Assembly (NCBI RefSeq): GCF_049584895.1
Contig: NZ_JBAUYR010000097.1
Coordinates: forward strand, 2,921-66,920
Source of the DNA: Candidatus Binatus sp.
GTDB lineage: Bacteria; Desulfobacterota; Binatia; Binatales; Binataceae
Reading direction: 5' to 3'
Length of the DNA stretch: 64,000 nt
Of this stretch, positions 1-37,627 are shown in pieces. The first letter of the stretch is position 1, and every line of letters begins with the position of its first letter. The notes beneath the pieces were generated by a model. That model was not told where the DNA came from. It worked only from the letters and a program-made list of their open reading frames with translations, and did no database searches. A program made the translations under genes and the position numbers.

Positions 1-2708
1 CGGACCTCATTCAAAAAAGCGGTGAGCGCGTTTTCATTCAGCCACGCACGAGGCTCCGGCTCATGCGCGACGGCGGGCAAGCTCGCGGGTGCAGGCGCGG
101 GACTCATGTTGCCGAGCACGCTCTGATCACGAAGCTTAATAGTGCCGTCATCGCGAATCTCGACCGCGAACATCCTTTCGTGAATCACGTCGCCCAGCCC
201 ATCGACGACACGCGCCCGGAAGAAATCCACTCTCACTGGCGCATCTACGGCGAGCGAGTACAGGCACGCACCATCGGCGAAAGATTCACGAGCCCTATCG
301 AGGACGTGACGCCGAAGCGCCTCGAACATCGAGTGTCCCGGCGTTACCCATTCAAAGTTGTTCTTTTCGGCCGTCTCCCGATCGGTCGAGAATCGAGGAT
401 ACCGAGCGGCCAGCGCAGGCATTTTCCAATCGGGCTGGGTTTCATAACGACGCAGCGCCTGTGGAGTCGCCGCGGGATCGAACGTATGCGGCAGCGAGGG
501 CACGGGTTTAAGAGTGAACGGCACGTAAGGAGCGCCCTGACTCACGAAGCGAGCGATCGTCTCGGGAACGAGCCGATGCTCCTGCGCACGCGCGCGCCGC
601 TCGACGAGCATTTGCAGATTCAGTTTTTTCGAGGCGAGACCCTCCAGCGCGTTCTGGCAGATTGCGCGGAAGCGATCCTCGCTTACATCGCGCAGAAGGC
701 GATCTTCCAGATCCGCCTCGCCGAGGTTGCCGGCATAGTAGTCGCGCAGGATGCGTTCCATTTGAGCCGCTGGAAGAATTTCTCCCACAACATTGAAAAC
801 CGTGTCGTCCTCAAGCGCCTTGCGAATCTCGTTGAGCTTTTCAAGCAAGCGGTCGAGGATGTGTCCCTCGACCGTGTTGGTCGCGACAAAATTGAAAATC
901 AGGCAGTCACGCGTCTGCCCGTAGCGATGGATACGGCCCATCCGCTGTTCGAGCCGGTTCGGATTCCACGGAATGTCGTAATTGAACATGATGTGGCAGC
1001 ACTGAAGATTGATTCCTTCGCCGGCCGCTTCTGTAGCCACCAGCACCTGGATCGCGCCCTCCCGAAACTGCTGTTCTGCGTGGAGCCTGCTGCCCTTCAC
1101 ATCGCGTGAGCCGATTTGCATCCCGCCGTGGATGAAGCCGACCTTGAAACCCCAGTTCGCGAGCTTGAGGACAAGGTAGTCGAGCGTGTCCTTGAATTCG
1201 GTGAAAATCAGAAGCCGCTCACTCGAATCGTCGAAGAATCCTTGCTCCTTAAGGACCTCCTTGAGCTTCGCGAGCTTGGCCTCGCCTTCGGCGTCTTCCA
1301 GAGCGCCCGCACGCTTCGCGAGTTCCTCGAGATCTGCGATCTCTTCGCGGACCAGCGTAGGGTTTTGTGCAAGTGTGACTGCTTCCAGCACGCGCTCGAT
1401 GCGATCGCGCTCGGCCTCTTCCATCTCCTCCATATCTTCTGCGTCCGGCAAATCGGAAGCGGTCAGCGCAATGTCCTGCGCGCGCTTCAATCCTTCCGCT
1501 AGACGTCGCGCTCGATTTTCCAGCGAGTGCCGAAGAGCATGTGCGCTCGAAGCGAGTCGGCGCTGATAAAGAGCCATCAAGAAGCCAACGGCGCGAGCCC
1601 GCGGATCATCACCTTTCGCTGCAGCCCGAGACGATTGAGATTTCACGAAGGAGGTGACATCGCGGTACAAATCGAACTCGTCGCCATCGATGGTGAAATC
1701 TGCGGTCCGAGGATCGCGCTTGGTGAAAAGCTTTCGTGCGACCCAACTGCCGTCGGCCTGTCGCTCGGGAAAATAGACCATCGCCTCCTTGGTGCGCCGA
1801 AGATAAAAAGGCGCCACGCGTCGCGTGATGGCCTCACGAATCGACTTCACGTCTGCATAGGCATCCTGATCGAGTAGCTGAAGAAAGAGACTGAAGTTCT
1901 CCGGATCGCCCTTGTGCGGAGTCGCTGTCAACATCAGGAAATGGTCGGAGTGATCTCGCAAAAGCTCGCCGAGTGCGTAGCGCGCTGTCTTCCGAGCCGG
2001 TGGAGACCACGACATTCGGTGCGCTTCGTCGACGATGACCAGATCCCATTGGACCTGCCGCAAACCAGGCAGAATTGTCTCCCGCTTCGCGAGATCGAGT
2101 GACGTGATGATCTGGCGGTTTTCGAGCCACTGGTTAATACCGAACTGCTCGCGAATATCACCGCCCTTCAGAACGATAAACTTTTCGTCAAACTTCTCCT
2201 TGAGTTCGCGCTGCCATTGGAACGTGAGGTTTGCCGGGCACAGCACGAGAACCCGCTCTACCAGCCCGCGAAGCTTCAGCTCCCTGACGAGGAGACCCGC
2301 CATGATTGTTTTGCCCGCACCCGCATCGTCGGCCAAGAGAAATCGCACCCGCGCCAACTTGAGCAGGTAGTCGTAAACAGCTTCGAGTTGATGAGGAAGC
2401 GGATCTACACGGGAAATCGATAGACCGAAGTACGGGTCGAACTCGTAGGCGATACCGAGCATGTACGCTTGGAGTCCGAGCCGCAGGAGTTCAGAATCGC
2501 CTGCGTAAGAGCAATTCGTCTCCTGGATCGTCAACTTTTGGAGATCAGCCGCCGTCAGCGTTACGTTCCGAAAACGCTCGGACTGAACCCCTACTAGCCC
2601 GACGCTCCAAGTGTCGCCATTTACTGGCCTGACGGTTTCGACCCGCATCGGTTCGTTGAAAAGCGAACCGACCAAGACTTGGCCTTCCTGCACCGATTGA
2701 TTGCCCAC
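1..2708 (-). CDS. SNF2/Swi2-family helicase; N-terminus and core present, C-terminus runs off the window start
   Basis: Own minus-strand translation. GTG at 2708 is preceded by GGGGGAG and by in-frame TGA TGA. Motifs seen: motif I LLADDAGAGKT (~2300-2340), DEAH box LVIVDEAH (~2021-2050), and motifs V-VI EGINLQCCHIMFNYDIPWNPNRLEQRMGRIHRYGQ (~930-1020). It is absent from the ORF track because there is no stop inside the window. The + strand ORF 63..1109 is its antisense shadow. Confidence 0.9.
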   Translation of the reverse strand, partial: MGNQSVQEGQVLVGSLFNEPMRVETVRPVNGDTWSVGLVGVQSERFRNVTLTAADLQKLTIQETNCSYAGDSELLRLGLQAYMLGIAYEFDPYFGLSISRVDPLPHQLEAVYDYLLKLARVRFLLADDAGAGKTIMAGLLVRELKLRGLVERVLVLCPANLTFQWQRELKEKFDEKFIVLKGGDIREQFGINQWLENRQIITSLDLAKRETILPGLRQVQWDLVIVDEAHRMSWSPPARKTARYALGELLRDHSDHFLMLTATPHKGDPENFSLFLQLLDQDAYADVKSIREAITRRVAPFYLRRTKEAMVYFPERQADGSWVARKLFTKRDPRTADFTIDGDEFDLYRDVTSFVKSQSSRAAAKGDDPRARAVGFLMALYQRRLASSAHALRHSLENRARRLAEGLKRAQDIALTASDLPDAEDMEEMEEAERDRIERVLEAVTLAQNPTLVREEIADLEELAKRAGALEDAEGEAKLAKLKEVLKEQGFFDDSSERLLIFTEFKDTLDYLVLKLANWGFKVGFIHGGMQIGSRDVKGSRLHAEQQFREGAIQVLVATEAAGEGINLQCCHIMFNYDIPWNPNRLEQRMGRIHRYGQTRDCLIFNFVATNTVEGHILDRLLEKLNEIRKALEDDTVFNVVGEILPAAQMERILRDYYAGNLGEADLEDRLLRDVSEDRFRAICQNALEGLASKKLNLQMLVERRARAQEHRLVPETIARFVSQGAPYVPFTLKPVPSLPHTFDPAATPQALRRYETQPDWKMPALAARYPRFSTDRETAEKNNFEWVTPGHSMFEALRRHVLDRARESFADGACLYSLAVDAPVRVDFFRARVVDGLGDVIHERMFAVEIRDDGTIKLRDQSVLGNMSPAPAPASLPAVAHEPEPRAWLNENALTAFLNEV

Positions 2709-3135
2709 GACTCCCCCGAACGAGCATCATCAGACTACGACGCTCCACCCGTTCTTACAACGCGGGCACCTTCGCTCCGGCCCCTCTCGCACCCTTCAAA
2801 CCCACGTCTCAAGAGGCGGCCCTGCGCTGTGAGCCGCCCCGCGAGCAGCTCCGTAAACTCCGCGTCACGCCCTTCCCCTTACCCCTTTGCCCATGCGGCT
2901 CCGCTTCGCGCCGCTCTAAGTGGTGGCGTTCGCTGCGCTAGCACGACGCGCCAGCCCTGACGGGCCGCTTTCGCTCTGGCACGTCCTGCCGCCCGCTCCG
3001 CTCGCGCATCTAGAAATCTGCGCAGGGACCTCCAGTTCCGGTGAGAGGTCCCCGCGAAAATGTTGCGCGGGAATGAAGGCAAAACGCAGCATGCCCTGCC
3101 CGATGACGGGAAGCGGGCGAAAGGAGAACACAACG

Positions 3136-3345
3136 ATGCGACGCAGGTTCAAATGCGATCCCAAGTGGATCACCGTCCGGTATCCGGCTAGGTGCGCCGA
3201 GCCGAATTGCCAAGCACCAATCAATGCTGGCGACCGCGCCTTCTATTACCCGAGCGATCGAGCCCTCTACGGCTCCGGTTGCGGTCATGGGGAAAAGGCC
3301 GAACGCGATTTCGCCGCGCACCAAATCGACGAAGACGGCTATTGA
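3136..3345 (+). CDS. Small Cys-rich (zinc-ribbon-like) hypothetical protein, 69 aa
   Basis: ATG at 3136 with AAGGAG at 3121-3126. Sequence MRRRFKCDPKWITVRYPARCAEPNCQAPINAGD...GSGCGHG has CxxxxC and CGH motifs. It lies immediately upstream of ssb in the same orientation. Confidence 0.5.
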   Translation: MRRRFKCDPKWITVRYPARCAEPNCQAPINAGDRAFYYPSDRALYGSGCGHGEKAERDFAAHQIDEDGY

Positions 3346-3381
3346 GCGAAACCCAAGGAACAAAGAACGGAGGTTCTAATC

Positions 3382-3765
3382 ATGTCAGTCAACAAAGTGA
3401 TCGTAATCGGAAATCTTGGCGCTAACCCCCAGGTTCGGACTCTGCCGAACTCCGGTCAAAACGTGGCGAATTTCTCGCTGGCGACGACCGCGCGTTTCAA
3501 GGATCGCAACGGCGACCAGCAGAAGCGGACCGAATGGCATCGCGTGGTTGCCTTCGGGAAACTCGCGGACACCTGCCAGCAGTTTCTAGCCAAAGGCCGC
3601 CAGGTCTACGTCGAGGGACGGCTGACGACCCGCCAGTACGAGGCGAAGGACGGGAGCGGCACGCGCTATCGGACGGAGATCGTGGCGCTGCAAATGCGCT
3701 TGCTCGGGAATCGCGCGAACGGCAACGCGTCCAAGGCGCAAGCGTCCGACGATATCCCCTTCTAA
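3382..3765 (+). CDS. ssb: Single-stranded DNA-binding protein
   Basis: Starts MSVNKVIVIGNLGANPQVR...TEWHRVVAFGKLA...YVEGRLTTRQYE, a classic OB-fold SSB, and ends in the acidic tail DDIPF. GGAGG sits 7 nt upstream of the ATG. Confidence 0.93.
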   Translation: MSVNKVIVIGNLGANPQVRTLPNSGQNVANFSLATTARFKDRNGDQQKRTEWHRVVAFGKLADTCQQFLAKGRQVYVEGRLTTRQYEAKDGSGTRYRTEIVALQMRLLGNRANGNASKAQASDDIPF

Positions 3766-3778
3766 GGCTCATCAATCA

Positions 3779-3807
3779 GGAGAGAGCCGCGCAAGCGGCT
3801 CCCTCCT
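3779..3807 (+). terminator. Stem-loop after ssb (GGAGAGAGCCGC-GCAA-GCGGCTCCCTCC)
   Basis: 12-bp stem with one mismatch and a GCAA tetraloop, 14 nt after the ssb stop. There is only a weak T-rich run downstream, so it may be an attenuator rather than a full terminator. Confidence 0.4.
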
Positions 3808-3840
3808 CAAATCAACAATTTCATTTTGGAGATTACGACA

Positions 3841-4713
3841 ATGGATGTGTATGCGATTGTCACCGAAAAGATCATCAATCTACTTGAACAAGGCGTGGCG
3901 CCGTGGCGCAGACCGTGGACCACGACCGGATTGCCGCGCAATCTTGTGAGCAAGAAACCGTATCGTGGCGTCAACGTTTTCCTACTTTCTGCGTCGAAGT
4001 ACGTTTCGCCGTTTTGGTTGACCATCCGCCAAGCGAACGAACTCGGCGGCCATGTCCGCAAAGGCGAGGAATCTACCGCCGTGGTGTTTTGGAAAGTCGA
4101 AGACTTGAAGCAGCGTACGGACGACCTCGCCGACGGCGAATCCGAGGCGAACACGCGCCGGCGTTTTCTCCTCAGATTTTATCGGGTTTGGAACCTCGAA
4201 CAATGCGAGCTGCCGCAATCCGTCATCGACAAGCTTCCGAAGATCGAAACGCACGAGCACGATCCGATCGAAGCGGCCGAGCGAATCATCGCCGGAATGC
4301 CCAACCCGCCGGAAATTCAGTACGCAGGTTCAAAAGCGTTCTACAGCTCGATCACCGATCGAATCACTCTGCCGCCGCGCAGTCTCTTCGAGTCCGTCGA
4401 AGAATTTTATGCAACCCTCGATCACGAAATCATCCATGCGTGTGGTTCGCCGAAACGATTGAATCGCGAATCTGTCGCCGAGGCGGCCCCGTTTGGCTCG
4501 CCAACATACTCGCGCGAGGAAATGGTCGCGGAGCTTGGAGCGGCATTTCTTTGCGCGGAAGCTGGAATCTCAAACGCCGTCCTCCCGAATCAGGCCGCCT
4601 ATGTCTCCGGCTGGCTGAAGAAACTTCGCGACGATCGCAGGCTTCTGATTCATGCTGCCGCCCAGGCACAGCGCGCGGCGGATTATATCCTCAACCGCAC
4701 TTGCCAAGAGTAG
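3841..4713 (+). CDS. ardC: ArdC-like anti-restriction protein (N-terminal ssDNA-binding DUF1738 domain plus C-terminal zincin-like metallopeptidase domain)
   Basis: N-terminus MDVYAIVTEKIINLLEQGVAPWRRPW...KPYRGVNVFLL, then a C-terminal HEIIHA (HExxH) motif. The ATG at 3841 has GGAG upstream; the ORF track offers an alternative TTG at 3826. Confidence 0.85.
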   Translation: MDVYAIVTEKIINLLEQGVAPWRRPWTTTGLPRNLVSKKPYRGVNVFLLSASKYVSPFWLTIRQANELGGHVRKGEESTAVVFWKVEDLKQRTDDLADGESEANTRRRFLLRFYRVWNLEQCELPQSVIDKLPKIETHEHDPIEAAERIIAGMPNPPEIQYAGSKAFYSSITDRITLPPRSLFESVEEFYATLDHEIIHACGSPKRLNRESVAEAAPFGSPTYSREEMVAELGAAFLCAEAGISNAVLPNQAAYVSGWLKKLRDDRRLLIHAAAQAQRAADYILNRTCQE

Positions 4714-4721
4714 GCTGCGCG

Positions 4722-4752
4722 CGGCGCGCCCGCGCGTTGCGCGGGCGCGCCG
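4722..4752. terminator. Perfect 13-bp GC-only hairpin between convergent ardC and abiEii
   Basis: GGCGCGCCCGCGC-GTT-GCGCGGGCGCGCC at 4723-4751, followed on the + strand by GTTATTTCC. It sits in the 49-bp gap between two stop codons and is a candidate bidirectional terminator. Confidence 0.55.
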
Positions 4753-4762
4753 TTATTTCCCA

Positions 4763-5678
4763 TCACCCGTCCGAGTGAAAAAGCACATCTTCGAGTCGTG
4801 ACACCAACTCCGCACGTTTCCTCTTGGTCAATCCGCCGAGATTTTTTTCCCGCCACTTGACCGCAGGAAGGCCGGCCGCTTCTGGAAGGCCAAGCAGGGA
4901 CCAGCCCGGTTCTCCCTTCTCGAACGAAATCAAAAAACGACGATGCTCCTCGGGCATCCGTCCGACAACCAGCTCGATCATCTCCTTCTGGGCGTCAACC
5001 AGCTCGCGTAGCAACACCCGCTCGGCCGTCATCCCTTCGAACCCGTGGTTGAATTCTTTGCTGATGTCTCGCCGGGTTCCTGCCAATACCTCGAACATCG
5101 GCCGGTCGTGACTAACGAGATAGACGACATAGGCGCGTCGCAACGAATCGTCTATGCCCTCGTTTTGCAGAAGATGGTGCACATCAAAGATGTCGCGAGG
5201 ATGCTGGCGGTCGAAAGCCGCCACGATTTTTCCGCCATAGATGTCGGCGAACGAAACGACGCGCGTTTCTGCAAACCCGAAAGCCTCTTCAACGCTTGAA
5301 GAAACGGCGCGGAGTTCGGCCTGGTAGACGGAGCCACGCAGAACCGGCGTCACTTCGATCTTTATCAGCACGCCTTCGGCGCGCACCAGTAGTTTTGTCG
5401 CGATGCCTTCCGGGCGGAGCAGCTCGTGCGTCGTTCGCGACCCGCGGATCCTCTTCTTTATCCCTTGCTCGATCCGCCTCATAGCGGCGTCGATAGCAGC
5501 GAGAGATTTGAACGGGCAAATACGTCAGATCGATATCGACCGACAGACGCGGCATGTCGCGAATGAACAGATTGATGCCCGTGCCTCCCTTGAGCGCGAA
5601 GCAGTCTTCGCGCGCAACTTCGGGCAGGGCTCGCACGACGAGCGCGGCCTGCTTGCGATAGACTTCACTGAACGGCAT
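4763..5678 (-). pseudogene. abiEii: AbiEii/AbiGii-family nucleotidyltransferase toxin (type IV TA), split by a frameshift near 5500-5515
   Basis: ORF 5289..5678 encodes MPFSEVYRKQAALVVRALP...FALKGGTGINLF...RLSVDIDLTYLPV and then turns into low-complexity Arg-rich junk. ORF 4763..5482, preceded in its frame by KSLAAIDAA, continues the family sequence (MRRIEQGIKK...IYGGKIVAAFDRQHPRDIFDVHHLL). The two frames meet at GAGAGATTTGAACGGGCAA (5501-5519). Confidence 0.8.
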
Positions 5679-6504
5679 CGAGGTTTCGGGGCACCGTTAT
5701 CTGATACGCAAGATCTAGCTTGCCACCCTTCGCAAGCATGCGCTTGCCTTTGCCGAGGTCAACTGCGGCCCGATCGATCCGTTTCAACCACGCGTGCTGA
5801 TGACGGTCGGCGAAGAAGAAGAAAAGCCTTTTCACCTTTATGCTTTGACAGCGAGCCAGCAGCTTTTGGAGCTGCTGCGGACGCATATTCGAGAGCCCCT
5901 CCATCAGCTTGTCCGCGTGTTCAAAACTTTCTCGCCCCGGCAACTCATCGAGCAACTCAAGAATCGCCCGCTCGGGCGCCGACAGCGCGAGGCCCAAATC
6001 CCACTCCCCCCAAGGCTGGACGAGAAAGCCAGCGTCCGCCCCTCGGCTCGGTTGCGCCTTAACGCCCTTGATCAAGTTCGTGAACGACCTTTGATCCGCT
6101 TCGGCCGAGAAAAGCCTGCCGCTGTAGCGATAGATGAAACGGACCTTGCCCGGCAGCCTGTTGAGCCAATTTGGCGGCGGTTCCGGTCCGTAGAGGTACA
6201 CCTCTTTCATCGTTGGCCGAAGGTAGTGCGCATACCCCTGTACTTCGAGCGAGGTACGTCCGCCAACCACCAGAGGTTCTTTCAGAATCGTCTGAAGCGA
6301 GATCACGATTTGCCGCCAGGTTAAGGAGCCGCGGGGCCGCTGATAGACGCCGCGTGTCGGTTGCCGCAGCCAGCCGCTCCGCACGTAATGGCTGACGAGC
6401 TGACGGGAATAGCCGTGCCGTATGAGCCAGGACGAAGTAACGACCAGCCCCTCGGGGAGCTGCTTCTGGAGTAGGTTTAAGTGTTGGGCTCGCTGTCCAG
6501 CCAC
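5665..6504 (-). CDS. abiEi: AbiEi-family type IV antitoxin / transcriptional regulator
   Basis: GTG start at 6504. N-terminus is LPEGLVVTSSWLIRHGYSRQLVSHYVRSGWLRQPTRGVY (wHTH), followed by a C-terminal AbiEi_4-like region. It overlaps the abiEii start by 14 nt. Confidence 0.85.
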   Translation of the reverse strand: MAGQRAQHLNLLQKQLPEGLVVTSSWLIRHGYSRQLVSHYVRSGWLRQPTRGVYQRPRGSLTWRQIVISLQTILKEPLVVGGRTSLEVQGYAHYLRPTMKEVYLYGPEPPPNWLNRLPGKVRFIYRYSGRLFSAEADQRSFTNLIKGVKAQPSRGADAGFLVQPWGEWDLGLALSAPERAILELLDELPGRESFEHADKLMEGLSNMRPQQLQKLLARCQSIKVKRLFFFFADRHQHAWLKRIDRAAVDLGKGKRMLAKGGKLDLAYQITVPRNLDAVQ

Positions 6505-6599
6505 ATTTGATATATTAGCATAAGATCAAACCAACCGTCTAGTTTGGAACTTAGCCATATTATCCAATCACATTTGATAAATAAGACGTATCTCAAACC
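6502..6599 (-). promoter_or_regulatory. Two ~31-bp imperfect direct repeats, each with TTTGAT..(A/C)TCAAA half-sites, at and upstream of the abiEi start; putative AbiEi operators
   Basis: R1 is at 6502-6532 (CACATTTGATATATTAGCATAAGATCAAACC). R2 is at 6569-6599 (CACATTTGATAAATAAGACGTATCTCAAACC). They share 23/31 positions including an identical 11-mer, and lie in a conspicuously AT-rich patch. Confidence 0.5.
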
Positions 6600-6772
6600 C
6601 CTGGAGGAGCAACAACTTTCTATGGAACCAGCCTAAGTATCCACCGCGAAGCCAAAACGGCCCTACGAATGTAAGCCCCACTGAGAGGCAACTGCCGCAG
6701 CGGAATTCGCCGAAAACAACAAGAGCGCGAAGTAGAAACAACTGCGAAAACACGAGAGGTACCGCTATCCCC

Positions 6773-7147
6773 ATGCCACAAACGCCTGTGACCATTGATG
6801 ATCTGCTCGCCGATCCTTCACGCTCCGTTGGGCTAACGCGCGGAGCCATCCAGCAACTCTACATCCAGCTCGCATCACGCATCGGCACGCTCAAAGCTCT
6901 TGAAAGTGTCTTGCTATCGATGCTCCTACGCCAACCGACCGACAGTGACCCCGCCTCTCAACCTTCCGGTCAATTGCTGACCGCCCCTGAGATGGCGAAA
7001 ATCTTAAACGTTCCCGAGTCATGGGTAAGAGAACAAGCTAGGCTCGGCGAATTGCCCTCCGTAAAGTTAGGCCACTATGTCCGCTTCCGGTCGGATGAGG
7101 TGAAGGCTCTGTTCACCCGGAGCCCATCAGGAAGGCCTGCTCGATAG
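6773..7147 (+). CDS. Excisionase-family / MerR-like helix-turn-helix DNA-binding protein
   Basis: The C-terminal half, LLTAPEMAKILNVPESWVREQARLGELPSVKLGHYVRFRSDEV, matches the excisionase-type HTH pattern. Confidence 0.65.
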   Translation: MPQTPVTIDDLLADPSRSVGLTRGAIQQLYIQLASRIGTLKALESVLLSMLLRQPTDSDPASQPSGQLLTAPEMAKILNVPESWVREQARLGELPSVKLGHYVRFRSDEVKALFTRSPSGRPAR

Positions 7148-7217
7148 CGGCACACAGCCGCCCGCAATGCGTCGGGCCTTTCCAGCGGGCGCAGTCCTGA
7201 GGCCGTGCAGACACAAT

Positions 7218-7643
7218 CTAAGGACGCCGAATTTCAGAATACCCAGACTCGCGTGCGCATGGATCACAAAGGGTTTTATACCAGCGTCCCTTTTCTCGGA
7301 GCTTCGCGGGCCCGCCGCAAAGTTCACAGATTCTCGCGCTCTGTTTTTCAGCTTCGTCGATTAGCCTTGAAAACTCGTCCGTCGCAGGCATCGCATAGAA
7401 CCGCAGCGTTCCGAACTTCTCCTTGACTTGAAGTGCACGCGGCCAATCTGTTGAATCCGGCGCAGCGCCACAACGGCGTGCGCTGCGCTCCAGTTTTTCC
7501 GATAGTCGAAAGATGAGATTGAACCAACCGTCCCTGCATTCGAAGAAGAATCGCGGAGCGCTGTCGGTGGCCCTCGGGCGGTCGGCTCCACAGTATAGCA
7601 CCGGAAACGATTCGACCAGAGCTTTCGTGTTTTGAGCGTTCAT
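7218..7643 (-). CDS. Conserved hypothetical Cys-rich protein (phage/plasmid-type)
   Basis: MNAQNTKALVESFPVLY...FFFECRDGWFNLIFRLSEKLE...LQVKEKFGTLRFYA...ARICELCGGPAKL...LCDPCA. The start was chosen at the ATG at 7643. The longer ORF upstream to 7937 looks non-coding and overlaps the next gene. Confidence 0.5.
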   Translation of the reverse strand: MNAQNTKALVESFPVLYCGADRPRATDSAPRFFFECRDGWFNLIFRLSEKLERSARRCGAAPDSTDWPRALQVKEKFGTLRFYAMPATDEFSRLIDEAEKQSARICELCGGPAKLREKGRWYKTLCDPCARESGYSEIRRP

Positions 7644-7806
7644 TCGTCCGACTCGCCGACCGTATTTTTCCACGCCTCGCGGGTGGACTCCACGATAATT
7701 TCTCATGCTTTCAAGATGCTGTCTATATGCGTTTGACCTGCTAAGTCTGTGACGATAAGCTGACCTTAGAAAGAGAGGCAACCGCCAAACTTCCGGAGGC
7801 CGACCG

Positions 7807-8199
7807 ATGGTCAGATCGCACACACAAGCCGCGACCGCGTTCCACGAAGCGCGAATCTTGAGAGATGCAACAGACGAGAACGGGCGATACGAAGCTGCGA
7901 AGATCGCACATCTGCTCGACTGGACCGTAAGCGACATCGCGCGTTATCTGGATAGGGACGCCTCAACAATTTCCCGCTTTGGCGCATCGCCGGTGCACCA
8001 GGAAAAGCTCGCCGCCCTCGCTTCGTTGACGCAAGAGGTCTTCGAGATAATGCGTGAGGATCTGCGGGGAACTCGGGCGTGGTTTCGGACCCCGATCAGA
8101 GCGCTAGACGGCAAGTCCCCCCAGCAACTAATCCTGAGCGGTTACTTCCGTAGAGTCTTCGGTCTTATCGAAGAATCCCGAAGCGGCTTGGCCTTCTAG
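7807..8199 (+). CDS. Xre/MbcA/ParS-family antitoxin (DUF2384 C-terminal toxin-binding domain)
   Basis: An HTH-like segment (IAHLLDWTVSDIARYLDRDASTISRF) is followed by TRAWFRTPIRALDGKSPQQLI, the signature of DUF2384 antitoxins. Confidence 0.6.
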   Translation: MVRSHTQAATAFHEARILRDATDENGRYEAAKIAHLLDWTVSDIARYLDRDASTISRFGASPVHQEKLAALASLTQEVFEIMREDLRGTRAWFRTPIRALDGKSPQQLILSGYFRRVFGLIEESRSGLAF

Positions 8200-8245
8200 G
8201 GGGCCCTGTTCAACCCCTCGCAATTGAGATAACCTTACAGACACG

Positions 8246-8479
8246 ATGAGTTCTTTCTACACAAGGGAATCTCGATCACACCCGCAGGCCGAAACGGAAG
8301 AGCGCCGGGCTGAGGACGGGCGTACGTTCGCCACGTTGTTCTCACATTCCGGTGCTCTTTGGTTTACGGAAATTGCCAATCGTGCGATCCAGGGCGCCAA
8401 AGCGCGTCTCCGAGCGTTCGGCATAGATCCCGAGGATCCTTCCTCAGAAGACGAGGATCCGAGATACCGTCTGAGCTAG
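8246..8479 (+). CDS. Small acidic hypothetical protein (77 aa), possible antitoxin of the downstream kinase
   Basis: Open frame with an acidic C-terminus (DPEDPSSEDEDPRY). It ends in a TAG that is in the same frame as, and 12 nt before, the next ORF. Coding status is uncertain. Confidence 0.3.
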   Translation: MSSFYTRESRSHPQAETEERRAEDGRTFATLFSHSGALWFTEIANRAIQGAKARLRAFGIDPEDPSSEDEDPRYRLS

Positions 8480-8491
8480 CGTCTTTCTCTC

Positions 8492-9148
8492 TTGGCTTGG
8501 TTCCTCCTCATTGCCGGTCCAAATGGTGCTGGTAAAACCACTTTCACGGGCTCGCCGGATTTCCAGAACGCCCTCAAGCTTTTCCCGGGTGGCCCAGTAC
8601 GGCTGCTGAATCCTGATGATGCTGCTAGGGCCTACTACTCTGGCAACCCTGGTGTCACACGGGATGCGGCCGACTACTGGGCTGCGAAAGAGATTCCTTC
8701 GCAGGTCGTCAAATGCATCGATGCTGGAGAAAACGTAGCCGTCGAAACAGTCCTTAGCAGCGACAAATACGAACCCATAATCCAACATGCGCAGCGGCAA
8801 GGATACCAAGTTGGAATCATTTATCTGGCGCTGGAGAGCGCGAAGGTTTCAAAAGAGCGCGTAGCAAAGCGCGTAGCCAGCGGAGGCCATCCGGTGCCGC
8901 AAACAAAAATCGCGGATCGTTGGGAACGGTCTCTCGATCGGCTGGTCAAATTCGTCCCGCTAGTGGATGGCCTTCTCCTGTTTCTGAGTACTTCGGGAGG
9001 CGTCGATCTCCTTTCAGAAAAACATCAAGGGCAGGTCATTTGGTATGGCGGAGCAAAATTCCCGGACCTGAAGGCACGCCTTGGAGCGAAAGATTTTCCT
9101 CAATCCGGTCCGAAAACCGGAGGCATGCCATTTCCGCACAAACCCTGA
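8492..9148 (+). CDS. Zeta-toxin-like / COG4185-type P-loop kinase
   Basis: Walker A lies right at the N-terminus (LLIAGPNGAGKTTF), with ETVLSS and a later RVASGGHPVP segment typical of zeta/AAA_33-like kinases. TTG start with no obvious SD. Confidence 0.65.
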   Translation: MAWFLLIAGPNGAGKTTFTGSPDFQNALKLFPGGPVRLLNPDDAARAYYSGNPGVTRDAADYWAAKEIPSQVVKCIDAGENVAVETVLSSDKYEPIIQHAQRQGYQVGIIYLALESAKVSKERVAKRVASGGHPVPQTKIADRWERSLDRLVKFVPLVDGLLLFLSTSGGVDLLSEKHQGQVIWYGGAKFPDLKARLGAKDFPQSGPKTGGMPFPHKP

Positions 9149-9286
9149 TCCTCAGACAACCGGTGGAGATTTCCTCGGATCAATCTGCGGACCATCCGAG
9201 CATTTGTATCAAAGCGTGATCCGCAGTCGCTCCGGGAAACCTCTCGCGATGCCATATGCTGCCGTCTTCCACGCGGCCGATGCTGC

Positions 9287-10267
9287 TCAGGTTCTCGGAT
9301 TCCGATCGTTAGATCGGCTGGACCTTCGCTCTCGTGGCTGGAATCCGTTTTTGTGCAGCATGACGTAGAGTGAGCGCCTCGAAACTCCAAGAATGTCCGC
9401 AGCGCGACTGCGGTTGTTACCCGTCGCCTCCAACGTCCTCCGGATGAGTTCGTGCTCTACCGCTTCCAGCGTCGATCCAACGCGGACGACAAACTCAGCT
9501 TCGCTGTGCCTGACCTCGTAAAATTCCTCGGGAAGATCGTGGAGCGCTATCCGGCCTTGCTCTCGCGTGACTACGGCCCGCTCGATCGCGTTCCGAAGCT
9601 CCCGCACGTTGCCCGGCCAATCGTACGCCCTGAACGCGGCCAGAGATTCGGCGTCGAGGCCGTCAACATCCTTTCCGTGCTCCTGATTGAGTTCCTCAAC
9701 GAAGTGGGCAACAAGCAAATCGAGGTCCTCAAGTCGCTCGCGCAACGGAGGGATCGTGATCTTGAGAACGTTAAGGCGGTAGTACAAGTCCTCCCGCAGT
9801 TTCCTGCTTTCGAGAGCTTCGTGAAGCGGGCGGTTAGTGGCGGCGATCACACGAACGTTAACCTGGATGCTTTCTTCGCCGCCAACCCTTCTGATCTTGT
9901 GGTCTTCGAGAACGCGAAGAAGTTTCGGCTGAAGCTCCGGCTTCATCTCGGTTATTTCGTCCAAGAAGACGGTCCCGCCATTGGCCTGCTCGAAGATCCC
10001 GAGCCGCCGGGCGGATGCGCTCGTGAACGCACCGCGTTCGTGCCCGAACAGCTCACTCTCGATTAGATCGCCAGGAATCGCGGCGCAGTTTACCGCAAGA
10101 AATCGTCCGCTCCGCTTCGAGCGAGCATGAATCTCGTTCGAGGCGACATCCTTGCCGACGCCGCTCTCGCCAATGATTAGAACTGTAGATCCTGATCGAG
10201 CAGCCTTGTCGATCAGCTCCTGCACGCGGAGAATCGCTTGCGATCCGCCAACAAACATTGGACGCAA
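9287..10267 (-). CDS. Sigma-54-dependent transcriptional activator (bEBP): AAA+ domain plus C-terminal Fis-type HTH, no N-terminal sensor domain (PspF-like architecture)
   Basis: Motifs seen: Walker A GESGVGKD, ESELFGHERGAFTSA (GAFTGA loop), Walker B GGTVFLDEI, YRLNV, WPGNVRELRNAIERA, and HTH NRSRAADILGVSRRSLY. The AAA+ domain begins within ~10 residues of the start (TTG at 10267 or ATG at 10258). Confidence 0.88.
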   Translation of the reverse strand: MRPMFVGGSQAILRVQELIDKAARSGSTVLIIGESGVGKDVASNEIHARSKRSGRFLAVNCAAIPGDLIESELFGHERGAFTSASARRLGIFEQANGGTVFLDEITEMKPELQPKLLRVLEDHKIRRVGGEESIQVNVRVIAATNRPLHEALESRKLREDLYYRLNVLKITIPPLRERLEDLDLLVAHFVEELNQEHGKDVDGLDAESLAAFRAYDWPGNVRELRNAIERAVVTREQGRIALHDLPEEFYEVRHSEAEFVVRVGSTLEAVEHELIRRTLEATGNNRSRAADILGVSRRSLYVMLHKNGFQPRERRSSRSNDRNPRT

Positions 10268-10626
10268 GCATCAGAGTCTCTCCGCTACCGCGTCCACCAC
10301 CACCTCAGGTCGAGTACCTCTAACGCCCTCTCACTACTCCAATAACGCCCTAAACTGCGGACGGCACCAAGGGTCCACGTCGGAAGCTGAACCCGAAGTT
10401 TAAACCTGTGAACCGGTAGTTCCGCCCGTTTCGCAGCCGTGAACTCCTGAACGCCGCACGACGGTCTGCGCTGTTAAAGGATGCACATCGTGTTACGATT
10501 TGTCTACCCAGAAAATGTTTCTCTCAGGCTTCATCCCAAAGGCCCCATTTTCGAAATGGTGTCCAGCGGCCCAGCCCTCGCATTTCTGCCACGCTCATCC
10601 TGCGGCGAGCGTGTGTTTCCGCTATC

Positions 10627-11985
10627 TTGCGATCGAGGGCTGAGAACCAAGAAAAGGGGAACTTTTTGCGCGGTCGTAACAATCCGCTCCGGAATGTCGC
10701 TGACGCTGAAATCAACGCGAAACTCGCTTCCGTCGTCGAATGGTTTGGCGAGAATTGGTTGGAGAAAGGCAGTAAGAACCCTGTGCAGAGAATCTGGCAT
10801 CGACAGGATGGGCTCGCGACAGACGAGCTTGTGATTCTGGGAGACGCCCTCCAGAGGCTTGAATCAGAAAACGAGCGCTGGGTTCAGAAAACCGTTAACA
10901 AAATTAAGACGGCCGATGACAACAATCGAAGCGGTGCAGTTTTCGAACTGATCGGACTGAGCCTTTTCGAGGCTGGCGACCAGAAGGTCACTTGTGCGCG
11001 CGACAGCAATCCTGGTTACGACGGCGAGATAGTTTTTCAAGGCGGCCAACGACTACTGCTATCGCTCAAGAGTTATGGAGACTCCGTTCATGAGCGCGAG
11101 ATAGTTCGGCAGTCTCGCTTGGTAGAGGCGACATTTGCTTCCGCGATGCAACGTACATCGCGGAATGGCCTCGGAATTCGAATTTTGGCAACGACTTTTC
11201 CATCTCAATCAGACTGGAACTCTTTGCGCTCGGCTATTTCCTCATTCACCGAAGCGCGCAGTGGCGCCAGCTCGGCCCCCTTTGCGATAAACAACATATG
11301 GGGGGCTATGATTCACCCACTAGCCGACTCCTTTTCACCATTGAGCGCGCAATATCTATCGTATGTGATGCTGGTGCTAGTGCCATTTCACAAAAATGAG
11401 CAGCAGAATCTGATTGCAAAAGTTGAAGCGGCGTGCGCGAACTTTGCGGCGCATCCGGGTCCGGGCTCCCCACAGGTCTGCCGCGCCGCATTCATCCGGT
11501 TGCCTCCGTCCGGATCCGTCGTCATTTGCCAAAAAACCGTACGCCAATACTTCTCGGACACTCCGGACAGTCCGATAGATGGAGTAATTCTCTATCAACC
11601 AACTGTATCTAGAGACTTGAAGACCAGCCAGTCTATCATCACTCACTACCTTGCATTTGCGGGAACCGTTAAGTTCGAGACTTGGTCCGCAACACTGCCG
11701 CACCCTATGAGCATCCGGACAATCGTCGGCGGCGTTTCGACGAAGCCTACGCAGATGATGCTGAATGATGGAACCATCTCTGTACCGATTGATGGCTGCT
11801 ACGCATTTCAAAGCGGCAACGTGTATCGCGAGTTTCGGTTGAACGAGAAAGGCGAGTCCACAAGCGAACTCGGTAGTCCCGCGCCTGGAGTTCTGACGCA
11901 TGCCGTACAGGAGTGTCTGCCCGGCCAGTGGTTACTTATCCAGGGCAAACTCCCAATCGACGAGCACTTCGAGGTGCTTGGATAG
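10627..11985 (+). CDS. Hypothetical protein, 452 aa, no family recognised
   Basis: Long clean ORF, visibly less GC-rich than the core genes. A possible PD-(D/E)xK-like string is present (AVFELIGLSLFE ... GYDGEIVF ... LLLSLKSY), but this is weak. The start is uncertain: TTG at 10627, or TTG at 10666 after AAGGGG. Confidence 0.6.
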   Translation: MRSRAENQEKGNFLRGRNNPLRNVADAEINAKLASVVEWFGENWLEKGSKNPVQRIWHRQDGLATDELVILGDALQRLESENERWVQKTVNKIKTADDNNRSGAVFELIGLSLFEAGDQKVTCARDSNPGYDGEIVFQGGQRLLLSLKSYGDSVHEREIVRQSRLVEATFASAMQRTSRNGLGIRILATTFPSQSDWNSLRSAISSFTEARSGASSAPFAINNIWGAMIHPLADSFSPLSAQYLSYVMLVLVPFHKNEQQNLIAKVEAACANFAAHPGPGSPQVCRAAFIRLPPSGSVVICQKTVRQYFSDTPDSPIDGVILYQPTVSRDLKTSQSIITHYLAFAGTVKFETWSATLPHPMSIRTIVGGVSTKPTQMMLNDGTISVPIDGCYAFQSGNVYREFRLNEKGESTSELGSPAPGVLTHAVQECLPGQWLLIQGKLPIDEHFEVLG

Positions 11986-12019
11986 CCTGCGAACTTAGAG
12001 CGCCCCATTTGGGTTCAGT

Positions 12020-12847
12020 TTGAAGCTTCTGGAGAGAGCCGGTATCCGAACGACCGACGCGGCAGGCGCCGCGGCGGTAAGTTTTCACGAGTACGTCTCC
12101 GATCGTTCTGCGGCTCTACTCCTACGTGAGCAGCCCGAGATGTTGGAGATCGGCTCAGTCGTATGCCTCAAGATAGAGGATCGCTATCTGGCTGCGACAG
12201 CTGCGCATAACGTCCGGCATTTAGATCCCCCGCGGATAGAGATTGTGCCAGCTGGCGAACGGAACGCGGAAGCACTCCGTGTCTGCCGTATCGGATATCC
12301 AACCAACACTGAGGACGAAGATGTCGCGTGTCTCGAGCTGGATCCGCAACAGTGCGCGCGAGCCCAGCGGGTTCGATTCGTTCACCTAAATCAGATCGCG
12401 CCCTTGACGGAACAGTCAGAACCTCAAGTCTGTTTTCTTCAAGGGTATCCCGCGCAAAATATCGAAAAGCCGGCGCATGCCCAGCACCGCCCGCTCGCCG
12501 AGTCCGACGGCCTTTTAACGCTGGTCATTCCTCTTCCGATGCGTCCCGCCGCTCAGGATCCACGCGTAATTGGCATCGAGTATCCTCCTCACGACGACAG
12601 CCTTAAGAAAGCTGGACTGCCGCATCCCGCAGGTTTAAGCGGCGGCGCTGTGTGGCTGTTTCCGACATTTAGAGAGAACTTGGTCTGGTCTCCTGACAAG
12701 GCGAGACTCGTTGCGATCGAGCGAGGATGGTGGCGGGAAGAGAAAGAAGTCATAGCAACCCGCATCGAAGTATGGCTCCGCCTGGTAGCCACGCAGATTC
12801 CGAAGCTTCGCTCCACAATCGAGGCCAAGTTCGGCCCACTCGCGTAG
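12020..12847 (+). CDS. Trypsin-fold (S1-like) serine protease, 275 aa
   Basis: Catalytic-triad motifs occur in the canonical order: TAAHN (His63, 12206-12208), DVACLEL (Asp101, ~12320) and GLSGGAVW (Ser207, ~12638). No signal peptide seen. TTG start, 35 nt after the upstream ORF. Confidence 0.65.
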   Translation: MKLLERAGIRTTDAAGAAAVSFHEYVSDRSAALLLREQPEMLEIGSVVCLKIEDRYLAATAAHNVRHLDPPRIEIVPAGERNAEALRVCRIGYPTNTEDEDVACLELDPQQCARAQRVRFVHLNQIAPLTEQSEPQVCFLQGYPAQNIEKPAHAQHRPLAESDGLLTLVIPLPMRPAAQDPRVIGIEYPPHDDSLKKAGLPHPAGLSGGAVWLFPTFRENLVWSPDKARLVAIERGWWREEKEVIATRIEVWLRLVATQIPKLRSTIEAKFGPLA

Positions 12848-13135
12848 AAGGCCCCTTTCACAGAGACTGATTTCGAGATCTGCGGAAACCGATGCGCGGA
12901 AATCCTGCATGCATCCTGACAACCGTGATTCGAGCCGACGCGCCCGGAAAATGCGGGAACTCGACGCGAAAGTGTGTGTGCGAAATCTGCACACTGCACA
13001 CTTTTTGCTGTTGGTCCGTCGCCCCGCGAGCCGCGATCGTCCACATCCCCGAAGGTCCCTGACTTGCACCATACGCGAACCGGCAGAGGTGTGGCGGAGT
13101 GGAGGTGGACACACCAAATCAGGAGGACTCCGCAA

Positions 13136-13346
13136 ATGCCTGACGCTCAAGTTTCCCCCAGCCCCGAGACGCGCGACTACCTCAATATCACAGAGACTGC
13201 AGATCGTTCGCGCTTGGCCGTGAAGACGCTCTATAATTGGATCAGCCTTGGCCGACTCGGACCCCGCGAAGGTGTCTGCCACGTCGGACGCAAGGTTGTG
13301 ATTCATTGGCCAACGTTTGAGGCGGCGGTGATGAGGAGAGGCGAAA

Positions 13347-13360
<14 letters not shown>
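13136..13360 (+). CDS. xis: Excisionase / AlpA-like HTH protein
   Basis: ATG at 13136 with AGGAGGA at 13121-13127. Sequence is YLNITETADRSRLAVKTLYNWISLGRL. It overlaps the integrase start by 14 nt. Confidence 0.7.
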
Positions 13361-14707
<1,347 letters not shown>

Positions 14708-36263: not shown

Positions 36264-37607
36264 TTAAAGAGTTGGCTGGACTCCGAGGCGGTGGGGATTT
36301 TCGGCGATTCCGTAGCGGGTCAGCATCCGGTAGAGGGTCGAGCGCGAGACGCCGAGCAAGTCGGCGGCGCGGCGGCGATTTCCTTCAGTCTCTTCCAGTG
36401 AACGCATCAAAGTCTTCTTGATCACGTCGTCGAGCAAGAACCCCAGCGGCTCTGAGCCGAAATCTATCTGAGGTGCGCTATGGACGGCCGGCGCTGGATC
36501 GTGGCCGTGGGCGGGAGGATCTACCGGCGAGTTCAACAACTCGGCGCCGGTTCCGTCCACGATCTGCTCGGGGAGATCGGTCACGACAATACGATTGTTC
36601 TCGCTCAAAATGACCGCGCTTTCGATTGCGTTGGAAAGTTCCCGGACATTTCCCGGCCATTGGTACCCGCATAGAACGTCGATCGCGGCGCGCGAGATCT
36701 CTGAGACGTCTTTGCCGAAAAGACGATTGTATTGTTCGATGAAATATCCGATGAAGGCCGGGATCGCCTCGCGTCGTTCGCGCAAGGGCGGAATAAAGAT
36801 CGCTGCCGCGCTCATGCGGAAGTAGAGGTCGTCGCGAAACGTTCCCGCTTTAACCATCGCGCGCAAGTCGCGATTGGTCGCCGCAACCAATCGCAGATTG
36901 ACCTTGTAGCAATGCGACGAGCCGACGGGCTGAACCTCATGTGTCTCGACCGAGCGCAGCAGCTTGGGCTGGAGCTTGAGCGGCAACTCGCCGATCTCGT
37001 CAAGGAACAGCGTGCCGCCATTGGCCGCGCGGAAGTAACCTTGCGATTCGTCGCGCGCGTCGGTAAAGGCGCCACGGATGTGGCCGAATAACTGCGACTC
37101 GGCCAGCGCTTCGACCAGGTTGGAGCAATTCAGCGTCACGAATGGACCATTCGGAACCGGACCGAGGGTATGGAGTGCGCGCGCGACCAGTTCCTTGCCG
37201 GTGCCGGATTCACCCGAAATCAAAACCGTCGCCTTGTACGGACTCAGTTGCGTAACCGACTTCAGGACCTTGCGCACCTGCGCCGAGCGCACGACCATCC
37301 CGCCGAGCCGGTCCGCGCTATGCACAAGATGACTGAGCGAGACCATCTCGCTTGCGCCGGTCCCGTTGGCAGTGGCCGATGTAGGCTGAGTTCCTGAAGG
37401 CGGTTGAGTGTCGTCGTGCTGCACCAATCCTCCTGCGTCGGCATGCGATGACAGGTCGATAGCTATCTTGAGAGCAATTGATGGGCCATTGTCGCGGAAT
37501 CGGAACACTCGCTGAACGATTGTCTGCAATAGGCACAGCCGCGCAACTGACCGGATACGGGAGTCGATGCGCCATTTCGATGGCGTAAGAGGGTCAGGAG
37601 GCGACAT
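36264..37607 (-). CDS. Sigma-54-dependent Fis-family transcriptional activator
   Basis: GESGTGKE, ESQLFGHIRGAFTDA, GGTLFLDEIG, WPGNVRELSNAIE, and C-terminal HTH NRRRAADLLGVSRSTLY. The ~130-aa N-terminal region is unrecognised. Confidence 0.88.
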   Translation of the reverse strand: MSPPDPLTPSKWRIDSRIRSVARLCLLQTIVQRVFRFRDNGPSIALKIAIDLSSHADAGGLVQHDDTQPPSGTQPTSATANGTGASEMVSLSHLVHSADRLGGMVVRSAQVRKVLKSVTQLSPYKATVLISGESGTGKELVARALHTLGPVPNGPFVTLNCSNLVEALAESQLFGHIRGAFTDARDESQGYFRAANGGTLFLDEIGELPLKLQPKLLRSVETHEVQPVGSSHCYKVNLRLVAATNRDLRAMVKAGTFRDDLYFRMSAAAIFIPPLRERREAIPAFIGYFIEQYNRLFGKDVSEISRAAIDVLCGYQWPGNVRELSNAIESAVILSENNRIVVTDLPEQIVDGTGAELLNSPVDPPAHGHDPAPAVHSAPQIDFGSEPLGFLLDDVIKKTLMRSLEETEGNRRRAADLLGVSRSTLYRMLTRYGIAENPHRLGVQPTL

Positions 37608-37627
37608 TGGTTTGCCGCTATCGCCCG

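Follow-up and report, generated by a model that had tools for sequence, protein, structure and literature searches.

Introduction

Defence hotspots are a familiar part of integrative elements and satellites, those of P2 and P4 among them, and in ICEBs1 excision is governed by a protease-controlled switch, ImmR/ImmA. Among the bacterial enhancer-binding proteins (bEBPs), activators of the PspF and HrpR-HrpS type are subject to a partner protein that acts in trans (PspA, HrpV); their binding sites are inverted repeats between divergent genes, and they often regulate their own expression. The restriction enzymes Cfr10I, NgoMIV and Bse634I, for their part, are D...SxK variants with a compensating glutamate on a helix. 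We compared these systems with a locus of Candidatus Binatus sp., from a metagenome-assembled genome, that lies in a window of 64,000 nucleotides (the whole stretch of DNA analysed; contig NZ_JBAUYR010000097.1, positions 2,921 to 66,920). The locus consists of three genes, for a bEBP, a 452-aa protein and a trypsin-fold protease, that precede an excisionase-integrase pair (xis-int) at the tRNA-Gly end of an island. Sequences compared with the window are cited by L and P numbers.

9287..10267, minus strand: bEBP gene, 326 aa, TTG start; a backbone gene of the integrative element
10627..11985, plus strand: gene for the 452-aa protein (439 aa from the TTG at 10666); the cargo gene
12020..12847, plus strand: trypsin-fold protease gene, 275 aa, TTG start; a backbone gene
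13136..13357, plus strand: excisionase-like HTH_17 protein (xis), 73 aa, E = 4e-5 and under the Pfam cut-off; syntenic with a 74-aa gene upstream of int in L010
13347..14696, plus strand: tyrosine integrase (int), Arm-DNA-bind_2 plus Phage_integrase
14633..14707, minus strand: tRNA-Gly(ccc), the integration target

A preliminary description of this DNA had treated the bEBP, the 452-aa protein and the protease as one candidate system. Its account of the three open reading frames, and of their setting among toxin-antitoxin (TA) genes, xis-int and tRNA-Gly, was accurate. Conservation of the genes as neighbours had been chosen beforehand as one of the tests that could refute the system, and it was found nowhere: neither an S1-type protease nor a bEBP homologue lay near a member of the 452-aa family in any of 15 independent contexts (phmmer), and the 452-aa gene was absent from all of about seven other lineages that have a protease homologue. 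Because the 452-aa gene and the protease are not conserved as neighbours, a three-gene system is not supported, and the original claim is dropped. We think it probable that the locus is instead a mosaic, in which backbone regulators flank a cargo slot and a stand-alone, nuclease-like gene occupies that slot. Such an architecture is an ordinary one for a mobile element. The analysis suggests two remaining leads of moderate interest, neither of them established, namely a nuclease-like protein family and a putative xis-int promoter under sigma-54/bEBP control, with the protease.

A conserved backbone around an interchangeable slot

How did these three genes come to lie side by side? In related elements, which carry the closest relatives of the protease, the gene order is AbiEii-AbiEi, then the bEBP gene on the minus strand, diverging from a variable slot that is followed by the protease, xis, int and tRNA-Gly. 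In L010-L013 (70% identity), AbiEii-AbiEi and the minus-strand bEBP face a YopA-like gene of 445 aa and a gene of 263 aa, after which come the protease, xis and int. In L015 (84% identity), AbiEi and the minus-strand bEBP face the 263-aa gene, the protease and int. The slot contains the 452-aa gene in the window and in L008, the 263-aa gene in L015 and L016, and both the 445-aa and the 263-aa genes in L010-L013; in the sister elements it spans 3746-5955 of L010 (a YopA_M/YopA_C-type gene of 445 aa and the 263-aa gene) and 1870-2661 of L015 (the 263-aa gene). The boundaries of the slot are apparent from blastn alignments. First, positions 505-1500 of L015 align with 9333-10326 of the window, which is the bEBP region. 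Second, positions 2721-4247 of L015 align with 12021-13548, from the start codon of the protease into int, and L010 behaves in the same way. Third, the 452-aa gene lies outside the blocks that are syntenic with L010 and L015. In all, synteny of the bEBP, protease, xis and int genes persists (70-78% nucleotide identity) despite the turnover of what lies between bEBP and protease.

Since the bEBP and the protease remain syntenic while the slot genes differ, we regard them as backbone regulators around interchangeable cargo. Both belong to the backbone of a family of tRNA-integrating elements found in Binatia-like bacteria. The 452-aa gene is swappable cargo that arrived separately, as follows from its position outside the syntenic blocks and from its lower GC content. 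The latter is 53.3%, compared with 58.1% for the protease, 58.1% for the bEBP and 59.7% for the rest of the window; the lower GC content that had been attributed to both plus-strand genes therefore applies to the 452-aa gene and not to the protease, which equals the bEBP. The arrangement resembles the cargo and defence loci of the P2/P4 hotspot type, in that conserved flanks enclose a slot that differs between close relatives. It also resembles ImmR/ImmA of ICEBs1, in which a protease gene adjoins a regulator and xis-int, although the flanking genes of the present locus encode a bEBP and an S1-fold protease and not a phage repressor and an M78 metalloprotease.

The reading of the preliminary description was that of a single regulated unit for defence or abortive infection, in which the bEBP activates the divergent two-gene operon and the protease cooperates with the 452-aa protein. 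It draws on the compact divergent layout, with the second and third genes 35 nt apart on the same strand, on the setting in a mobile element that also carries ArdC, AbiE and a Zeta-like TA module, and on an identical arrangement in L008. However, L008 is a sister contig, 98% identical to the window, that carries the same element and is not an independent case. Together with the absence of conserved neighbours described above, the replacement of the 452-aa gene by unrelated genes in the closest elements, its different GC content, the lack of a credible sigma-54 promoter upstream of it and the empty PADLOC search make such a system very improbable. Two observations nonetheless weigh against the mosaic reading. 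One is the 35-nt gap and shared strand of the 452-aa and protease genes, because of which they are probably co-transcribed here and a local interaction is possible. The other is that the adjacency of bEBP and protease recurs in only one further independent lineage (P0027) of about seven.

Two possible relationships of the other slot genes were examined. The YopA-like 445-aa protein of the L010 slot shows no homology to the 452-aa protein (hhalign probability 0.1%). The 263-aa gene, which is weakly DUF5677-like, lies immediately 5′ of the protease in L010, L012, L015 and L016; as a wider partner of the protease it was rejected, its phmmer matches being confined to L010-L016.

A widespread family of solitary genes

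The 452-aa open reading frame is 100% identical to the NCBI 'hypothetical protein WAU82_04550', for which the start is placed at the TTG at 10666 (439 aa); the start at 10627 is favoured because of N-terminal similarity to P0002. The protein has no match in Pfam, PADLOC, NCBIfam or PHROGs, in agreement with the earlier statement that it could not be placed in a family. It is not an orphan, however. A word-indexed search gave 10 relatives, and an exhaustive hidden Markov model search gave far more, namely 697 clusters at 50% identity with E<=1e-3, including 355 with E<=1e-30. Almost all of the clusters are full-length, at 420-460 aa. Members occur in Binatia, cyanobacteria, Desulfobacterota, Bacteroidota and Magnetococcales, as well as on Burkholderia plasmids and on IncHI2/IncF plasmids of clinical Enterobacteriaceae. 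We found 21 plasmids with a member, 18 of them conjugative, and of 5,426 complete E. coli genomes only three have one. The neighbourhoods of family members are as follows (IS, insertion sequence; CBASS, cyclic oligonucleotide-based antiphage signalling system).

L001: TPR gene upstream, enoyl-CoA hydratase gene downstream
L002: Metallophos gene and LmuB-like SMC ATPase gene before the member; IS and recombinase after it
L003/L004: type III CBASS (SMODS, HORMA, TRIP13, SAVED) and HTH-M78/DUF3368 adjoining
L026: Burkholderia glumae plasmid, IS elements around the member
L027, 6430-10516: Klebsiella pneumoniae IncHI2 plasmid p2723-384k (about 12 similar plasmids), homologue WP_008786706.1; the cluster comprises a TPR gene, a weakly AbiD-like gene, the homologue and an Abi-family ('abortive infection family') protein, with an S-4TM effector close by
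L028: IncF plasmid, RelE/ParE and a GNAT gene adjoining
L029-L031: member 35 nt downstream of hsdM-hsdS-hsdR
L032, L033: IS elements beside the member
L034, L036: cyanobacteria, PIN and DUF29 genes nearby
L035: Desulfomonile, preceded by PglZ-BrxL and a PDC-S02 gene
L037: Chitinophaga, integrase and M78 peptidase nearby
L038: Magnetococcales, mad3-like and PDC-M37B-like genes and a serine recombinase nearby

An all-against-all comparison of the neighbours revealed no family common to the 15 contexts except transposases. A TPR protein, which is present in L001 and L027, was considered as a conserved partner and rejected, there being no shared neighbour family overall. The 452-aa family is therefore a widespread, horizontally scattered, solitary gene of defence islands and conjugative plasmids. 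Because its members stand beside genes of type I restriction-modification (R-M), bacteriophage exclusion (BREX), CBASS, methylation-associated defence system (MADS)-like and Abi systems, without a conserved partner, the most likely role of the 452-aa protein is that of a stand-alone defence nuclease. In its solitary position within defence islands it resembles the single-gene type IV-like defence nucleases. The END nucleases (PMC12191111) offer an analogy for single-gene defence nucleases; they are of the PLD type and unrelated to the 452-aa family. The defence role that had been suggested for the three genes together is accordingly plausible for the 452-aa gene by itself, given its relatives in defence islands, and not for a three-gene system. 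Against it, we note that the case for defence is drawn from genomic neighbourhood, and that several contexts contain IS or housekeeping genes only (L001, L033). A check against catalogued defence systems, which the preliminary description had proposed, was negative: PADLOC-DB v2 gave no match for the 452-aa protein or the protease of the window, or for seven diverse members of the 452-aa family.

If the defence activity is real, the catalogue of defence genes would gain a family of about 700 clusters that has recurrent defence-gene neighbours and no model in any of the four libraries searched, and the E. coli-compatible homologue would be a single-gene candidate.

A pair of genes beside one of these members recurs elsewhere. 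A fusion of HTH_3 and Peptidase_M78 (about 360 aa) together with a DUF3368 gene (about 167 aa) is found at 3694-5264 of L003/L004, where the 452-family member and CBASS lie, and the same pair is found on the P0027 contig, beside a member of the protease family.

A nuclease-like core in the 452-aa family

The preliminary description had noted at most a weak PD-(D/E)xK-like string in the 452-aa protein. We aligned 98 diverse members (22-60% identity to the query) and found exactly five invariant residues, G90, E94, D119, S133 and K135 (439-aa numbering), the codons of four of which are listed here; E245, on the next helix, is nearly invariant.

10945-10947: E94
11020-11022: D119
11062-11064: S133
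11068-11070: K135

In the AlphaFold2 (AF2) model (predicted local distance difference test, pLDDT, 79), residues 85-99 form a helix, 106-110, 120-124 and 129-136 form strands, 141-163 a helix and 169-175 a strand, so that the predicted topology of the core is alpha-beta-beta-beta-alpha-beta, as in restriction-endonuclease-like nucleases. E94 lies on the helix 85-99, D119 begins the strand 120-124, and S133 and K135 are in the strand 129-136. E94, D119 and K135 thereby occupy the canonical places of an E...D...(D/E)xK motif, the residue two before the lysine being an invariant serine. The likeness to PD-(D/E)xK enzymes accordingly comprises a Glu on the first helix, an Asp opening strand 2 and SxK in strand 3, and the Ser where an acidic residue is usual is reminiscent of the D...SxK...E variants of the Cfr10I/NgoMIV group. 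The 452-aa protein differs from PD-(D/E)xK restriction enzymes in having no adjoining methyltransferase of its own and no significant match, and it has in addition an N-terminal helical domain of about 85 residues and a C-terminal beta domain of about 90 residues. We lean towards the view that the core of the family is a PD-(D/E)xK-type nuclease, of a D...SxK variant with a helix Glu upstream. The weak string noted earlier has consequently gained invariant residues on a matching core, and it departs from the consensus by its serine.

Several results speak against a nuclease. The best Foldseek E values were 0.048 (PDB) and 0.0066 (viral), with a global TM below 0.2, so there was no significant nuclease match; the top matches, all of them non-significant, were ACE1 (Cas4-like), HindIII, EcoO109I, EcoRV, VRR-NUC and AdnAB, along with small phage PD-(D/E)xK nucleases. 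Local Foldseek matches to small nucleases covered 52-58 columns with a probability of 0.97, but with E > 0.1. A profile search of the family against PDB (hmmsearch) returned nothing, no Pfam nuclease family recurred across the 98 members even at E<=5, and the third residue of the motif is Ser and not Asp or Glu. These results would suit another kind of accessory protein, such as a factor for addiction or exclusion, a protein that counters defence, a helper in DNA repair or recombination, or a non-catalytic DNA binder with a restriction-endonuclease-like fold, and such a protein would also fit the many contexts made up of plasmids, IS elements and integrases and the absence of the family from the phage collections searched. 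We nevertheless consider it unlikely, since the invariant E, D and K fall exactly at the canonical positions of the secondary structure, with the near-invariant E245 on the next helix, since members repeatedly adjoin type I R-M, BREX, CBASS and a mad3-like gene, and since D...SxK variants with a compensating helix Glu are established in enzymes of the Cfr10I/NgoMIV type.

Returning to the stand-alone defence nuclease, we propose that the 452-aa protein may cleave incoming DNA without a partner, in a restriction-like or abortive manner, and that its N-terminal helical and C-terminal beta domains may sense the target. The size of the family, its contexts and its conserved residues are observed directly, and the nuclease chemistry and the part in defence are proposals.

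A phage origin was rejected for both the 452-aa protein and the protease, neither of which had a match in the phage collections (tblastn on phage records and three IMG/VR scans).

A cytoplasmic trypsin-fold protease

The preliminary description of the third gene as a protease of trypsin fold with a His63/Asp101/Ser207 triad and no signal peptide is borne out. The protein has the motifs TAAHN, DVAxLE and GxSGG, with His, Asp and Ser in trypsin order, and the triad is encoded as follows.

12206-12208: H63
12320-12322: D101
12638-12640: S207

Thirty homologues were found among 5.8 billion proteins; in 26 that were aligned (33-84% identity), H63, D101, G205, S207 and G209 are invariant. The AF2 model has a pLDDT of 87.6 and a predicted TM score (pTM) of 0.88, and a Foldseek search against PDB gave 71 matches with E<=1e-3, all of trypsin fold, with a probability of 1.0 and top E values of 1e-7 to 1e-5. 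SplE, chymotrypsin, thrombin, DegS, HtrA1 and exfoliative toxins are among these structural relatives, and the family profile matches SplE (E = 7e-6) over the first barrel with the His and Asp motifs aligned. At E<=0.01 there is no match in Pfam or NCBIfam, the protein falling below the Trypsin and Trypsin_2 thresholds, and its sole library match is phrog_36721 (function unassigned). Neither a hydrophobic N-terminus nor a transmembrane segment was seen. The modelled fold and the conserved motifs mark the protein as a genuine PA-clan protease, predicted to be cytoplasmic, of a sequence family without a curated model. It shares the double beta-barrel and a C-terminal helix with S1B or glutamyl-endopeptidase-like proteases (SplE, V8, exfoliative toxins) and with DegS/HtrA. 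Unlike that group, it is cytoplasmic, lacks a signal peptide and is borne on a mobile element. It also carries additional helices at both termini, namely a helical extension formed by residues 1-27 and two helices at the C-terminal end.

In the P0027 lineage (45% identity), a 399-aa bEBP directly follows the protease. Other homologues lie beside an IS element and large helicases, or near a type IV secretion system coupling protein and a TA pair, and some are near PIN or DUF4145 genes. Three further members of the family are of note. At 4675-5502 of L005, from a Gallionella sp. metagenome-assembled genome, a lone homologue is inserted between truA and trpF-trpB-trpA on the same strand. At 1633-3485 of L019, an SpbK-like TIR_2 protein (PADLOC E = 2e-13) is encoded 156 nt downstream of a homologue. 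Lastly, P0024 (388 aa, ENA metagenome) is a family member fused at its C-terminus to an MNT nucleotidyltransferase (PF18765/PF01909), which is of the type found in HEPN-MNT modules.

A sensor-less activator

The bEBP was correctly described as an AAA+ sigma-54 domain and a Fis-type helix-turn-helix (HTH) with no input domain. Pfam identifies Sigma54_activat (PF00158, E 1e-64) at residues 6-170, covering profile positions 2-167 of 168, then AAA_lid_14, and HTH_8 (PF02954, E 4.6e-13), a Fis-type HTH, at residues 266-301; the motifs GESGVGK at aa 33, GAFTSA at aa 79-84 (window 10016-10033) and FLDEI at aa 101 are present. Nothing precedes the AAA+ domain, which begins at residue 6. A truncated sensor domain upstream was ruled out, because a stop codon lies two codons before the TTG start, the remaining frames are rich in stops so that every frame is interrupted, and related elements keep a short protein of the same architecture, at 319 aa in L010 and 326 aa in L015 (66-68% identity).

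This architecture of AAA+ plus Fis-type HTH only, with a length of about 325 aa and an intact GAFT-type loop, is that of PspF and HrpR-HrpS. Unlike them, the bEBP is located on an integrative element, has no adjoining PspA-like gene and carries the loop GAFTSA, and its candidate target is xis-int and not a stress operon. In NCBIfam the protein is under every equivalog cut-off, with PrdR as the best partial match. It is not a PspF orthologue (TIGR02974, 260 bits against a cut-off of 443.55; NF008622, 218 against 529), and neither PspA nor another Pfam domain is found in either neighbour. It is not RtcR, since the PADLOC match spans only model positions 171-479 of 481 and the CARF part is absent. 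A phage origin was also rejected, the matches in the 'phages' collection being ZraR/NtrC on mis-binned bacterial contigs.

A second, full-length bEBP is encoded in the core genome at 36267-37784 on the minus strand (506 aa, with an N-terminal region of about 160 aa). Because of it, the host presumably uses sigma-54.

Candidate control regions

If the bEBP is active, what might it control? The intergenic regions contain the following candidate features.

10268..10515: bEBP-side part of the intergenic region, conserved in the alignment with related elements; the homology stops near 10515, before the cargo
10506-10478, minus strand: sigma-70-like element TAGACA (10506-10501), 17 nt, CATCCT (10483-10478); TGCACA-like motifs occur in the same region
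12969..13004, plus strand: palindrome AAAGTGTG-N20-CACACTTT, with the core TGTGC-N7-GCACA at 12977-12993 and two tandem TGCACAC repeats at 12988-13001
13053..13068, plus strand: GG-N10-GC sigma-54-like -24/-12 element AGGTCCCTGACTTGCA (AGGTCCCTGAnTTGCA), about 68 nt ahead of the ATG start codon of xis

Between the bEBP and the 452-aa gene (10268-10626), the best sigma-54 site is CGGCCCAGCCCTCGCA at 10567, which lies in non-conserved sequence and scores 6.0 bits. As 139 positions of the window score at least as well, about 0.4 would be expected in this interval (consensus scan plus an approximate position weight matrix, PWM). A sigma-54 promoter here was therefore rejected as being at chance level, which agrees with the preliminary description, where none was seen. 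TAGACA-17-CATCCT at 10506-10478 may be the promoter of the bEBP gene itself; a simple consensus scan did not call it.

The best candidate target of sigma-54 control lies upstream of xis and not of the 452-aa gene. The exact core of the palindrome is found a single time in the 64 kb, and L008, L010-L013 and L015 each have a single copy at the matching place. The GG-N10-GC element is situated about 70 nt beyond the palindrome, and the centre of the palindrome lies about 94 nt upstream of the predicted start. The region with palindrome and GG-N10-GC is common to L008, L010-L013 and L015, and a variant form is present in L017. In four diverged elements, 13053-13068 is invariant save for one base, located in the spacer. 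By the approximate PWM the site scores 7.4 bits; 56 of 127,970 positions are as good, and about 0.1 would be expected in the interval. Enhancers of bEBPs classically take the form of an inverted repeat some 90 nt upstream. From sequence conservation, we infer that the palindrome at 12969-13004 is a candidate enhancer (upstream activating sequence, UAS) for the bEBP, and the placement of bEBP and protease by the palindrome and the -24/-12-like element suggests sigma-54 control of the excision of the element. We put a link of the bEBP and sigma-54 to the putative xis-int promoter at somewhat less than an even chance. Some points tell against it. The site reaches 7.4 bits only and its -24 region, GGTCC, is atypical; the conserved blocks upstream of xis could instead bind Xis or another regulator; and no rpoN gene or RpoN box is found within the 64-kb window. 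Sigma-54 dependence of xis-int would be unusual; our full-text searches gave no described precedent for it.

Another possibility is that the bEBP and the protease are linked neither to each other nor to xis-int, both being further cargo or regulators with unrelated targets. The blocks upstream of xis would then be bound as operators by Xis, by Int or by some other repressor, and transcription would not depend on sigma-54. This would agree with the low score of the GG-N10-GC site, for which chance would give about one site per 2.3 kb of single strand, with the lone protease homologues of most other lineages (beside truA/trpF in Gallionella, an SpbK-like TIR protein, PIN, DUF4145 or IS), and with the MNT nucleotidyltransferase fusion, which suggests an autonomous role of the protease in a conflict system. 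It is harder to reconcile with the synteny of bEBP, protease, xis and int despite the turnover of genes between them, with the second lineage in which protease and bEBP are adjacent, with a 16-nt element whose sole variable base is in the unconstrained spacer, with the established spacing of bEBP enhancers, and with the absence of a visible sigma-70-type promoter upstream of xis. We consider it somewhat unlikely.

In the mosaic that we favour, sequence conservation suggests the following regulation. The bEBP most likely works on the control region of its own element. It may bind the TGTGC-N7-GCACA palindrome and activate a sigma-54-type promoter before xis-int, and it may regulate its own gene through the TGCACA-like motifs of its promoter region. 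The bEBP may in turn receive its input from the protease, which would release or limit it; the place of the protease in the syntenic backbone and the recurrence in P0027 are weak support for this. Control of the input-less activator by a partner protein or by proteolysis, as the preliminary description had suggested, may accordingly be correct. The fullest form of the idea is that bEBP, protease, palindrome and -24/-12 element make up an undescribed induction switch, in which excision would be sigma-54-dependent and gated by proteolysis, with a cargo hotspot inside that, in this genome, would deliver a member of a new, widespread family of single-gene restriction-like defence nucleases; taken as a whole, this is decidedly unlikely.

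The highest scores for a sigma-54-like site in the window, 13-14 bits, belong to three positions, 47865, 61825 and 37488 (minus strand), all in the core part and not in the island.

The surrounding island

No hydrophobic segment was predicted in any of the three proteins, Rfam identified only tRNA in the window, and a scan for sigma-70 promoters and terminators gave background levels only. At the island end, int, xis and the adjacent tRNA-Gly are all present, and the integrase open reading frame overlaps the tRNA-Gly(ccc) gene, which lies on the other strand, by 64 nt. A search for att repeats found no direct repeat of the tRNA end of at least 12 nt in positions 1-14400, and the far end of the island therefore probably lies beyond the window. 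The surroundings of the three genes also encode SSB, ArdC, AbiEii/AbiEi, an HTH_17 protein, a ParS-like antitoxin and a Zeta-like kinase, the last of which is located as follows.

8492-9148: Zeta-like toxin (Zeta/AAA_33 kinase-like)

By blastn, 6600-9332 is absent from L015 and is a window-specific insertion, which makes it a second variable slot of the backbone. It holds the HTH_17 protein (6773-7147), the antitoxin, of the Xre/MbcA/ParS type (7807-8199), and this toxin. The ParS-type antitoxin beside a Zeta kinase-like toxin is an unusual pairing.

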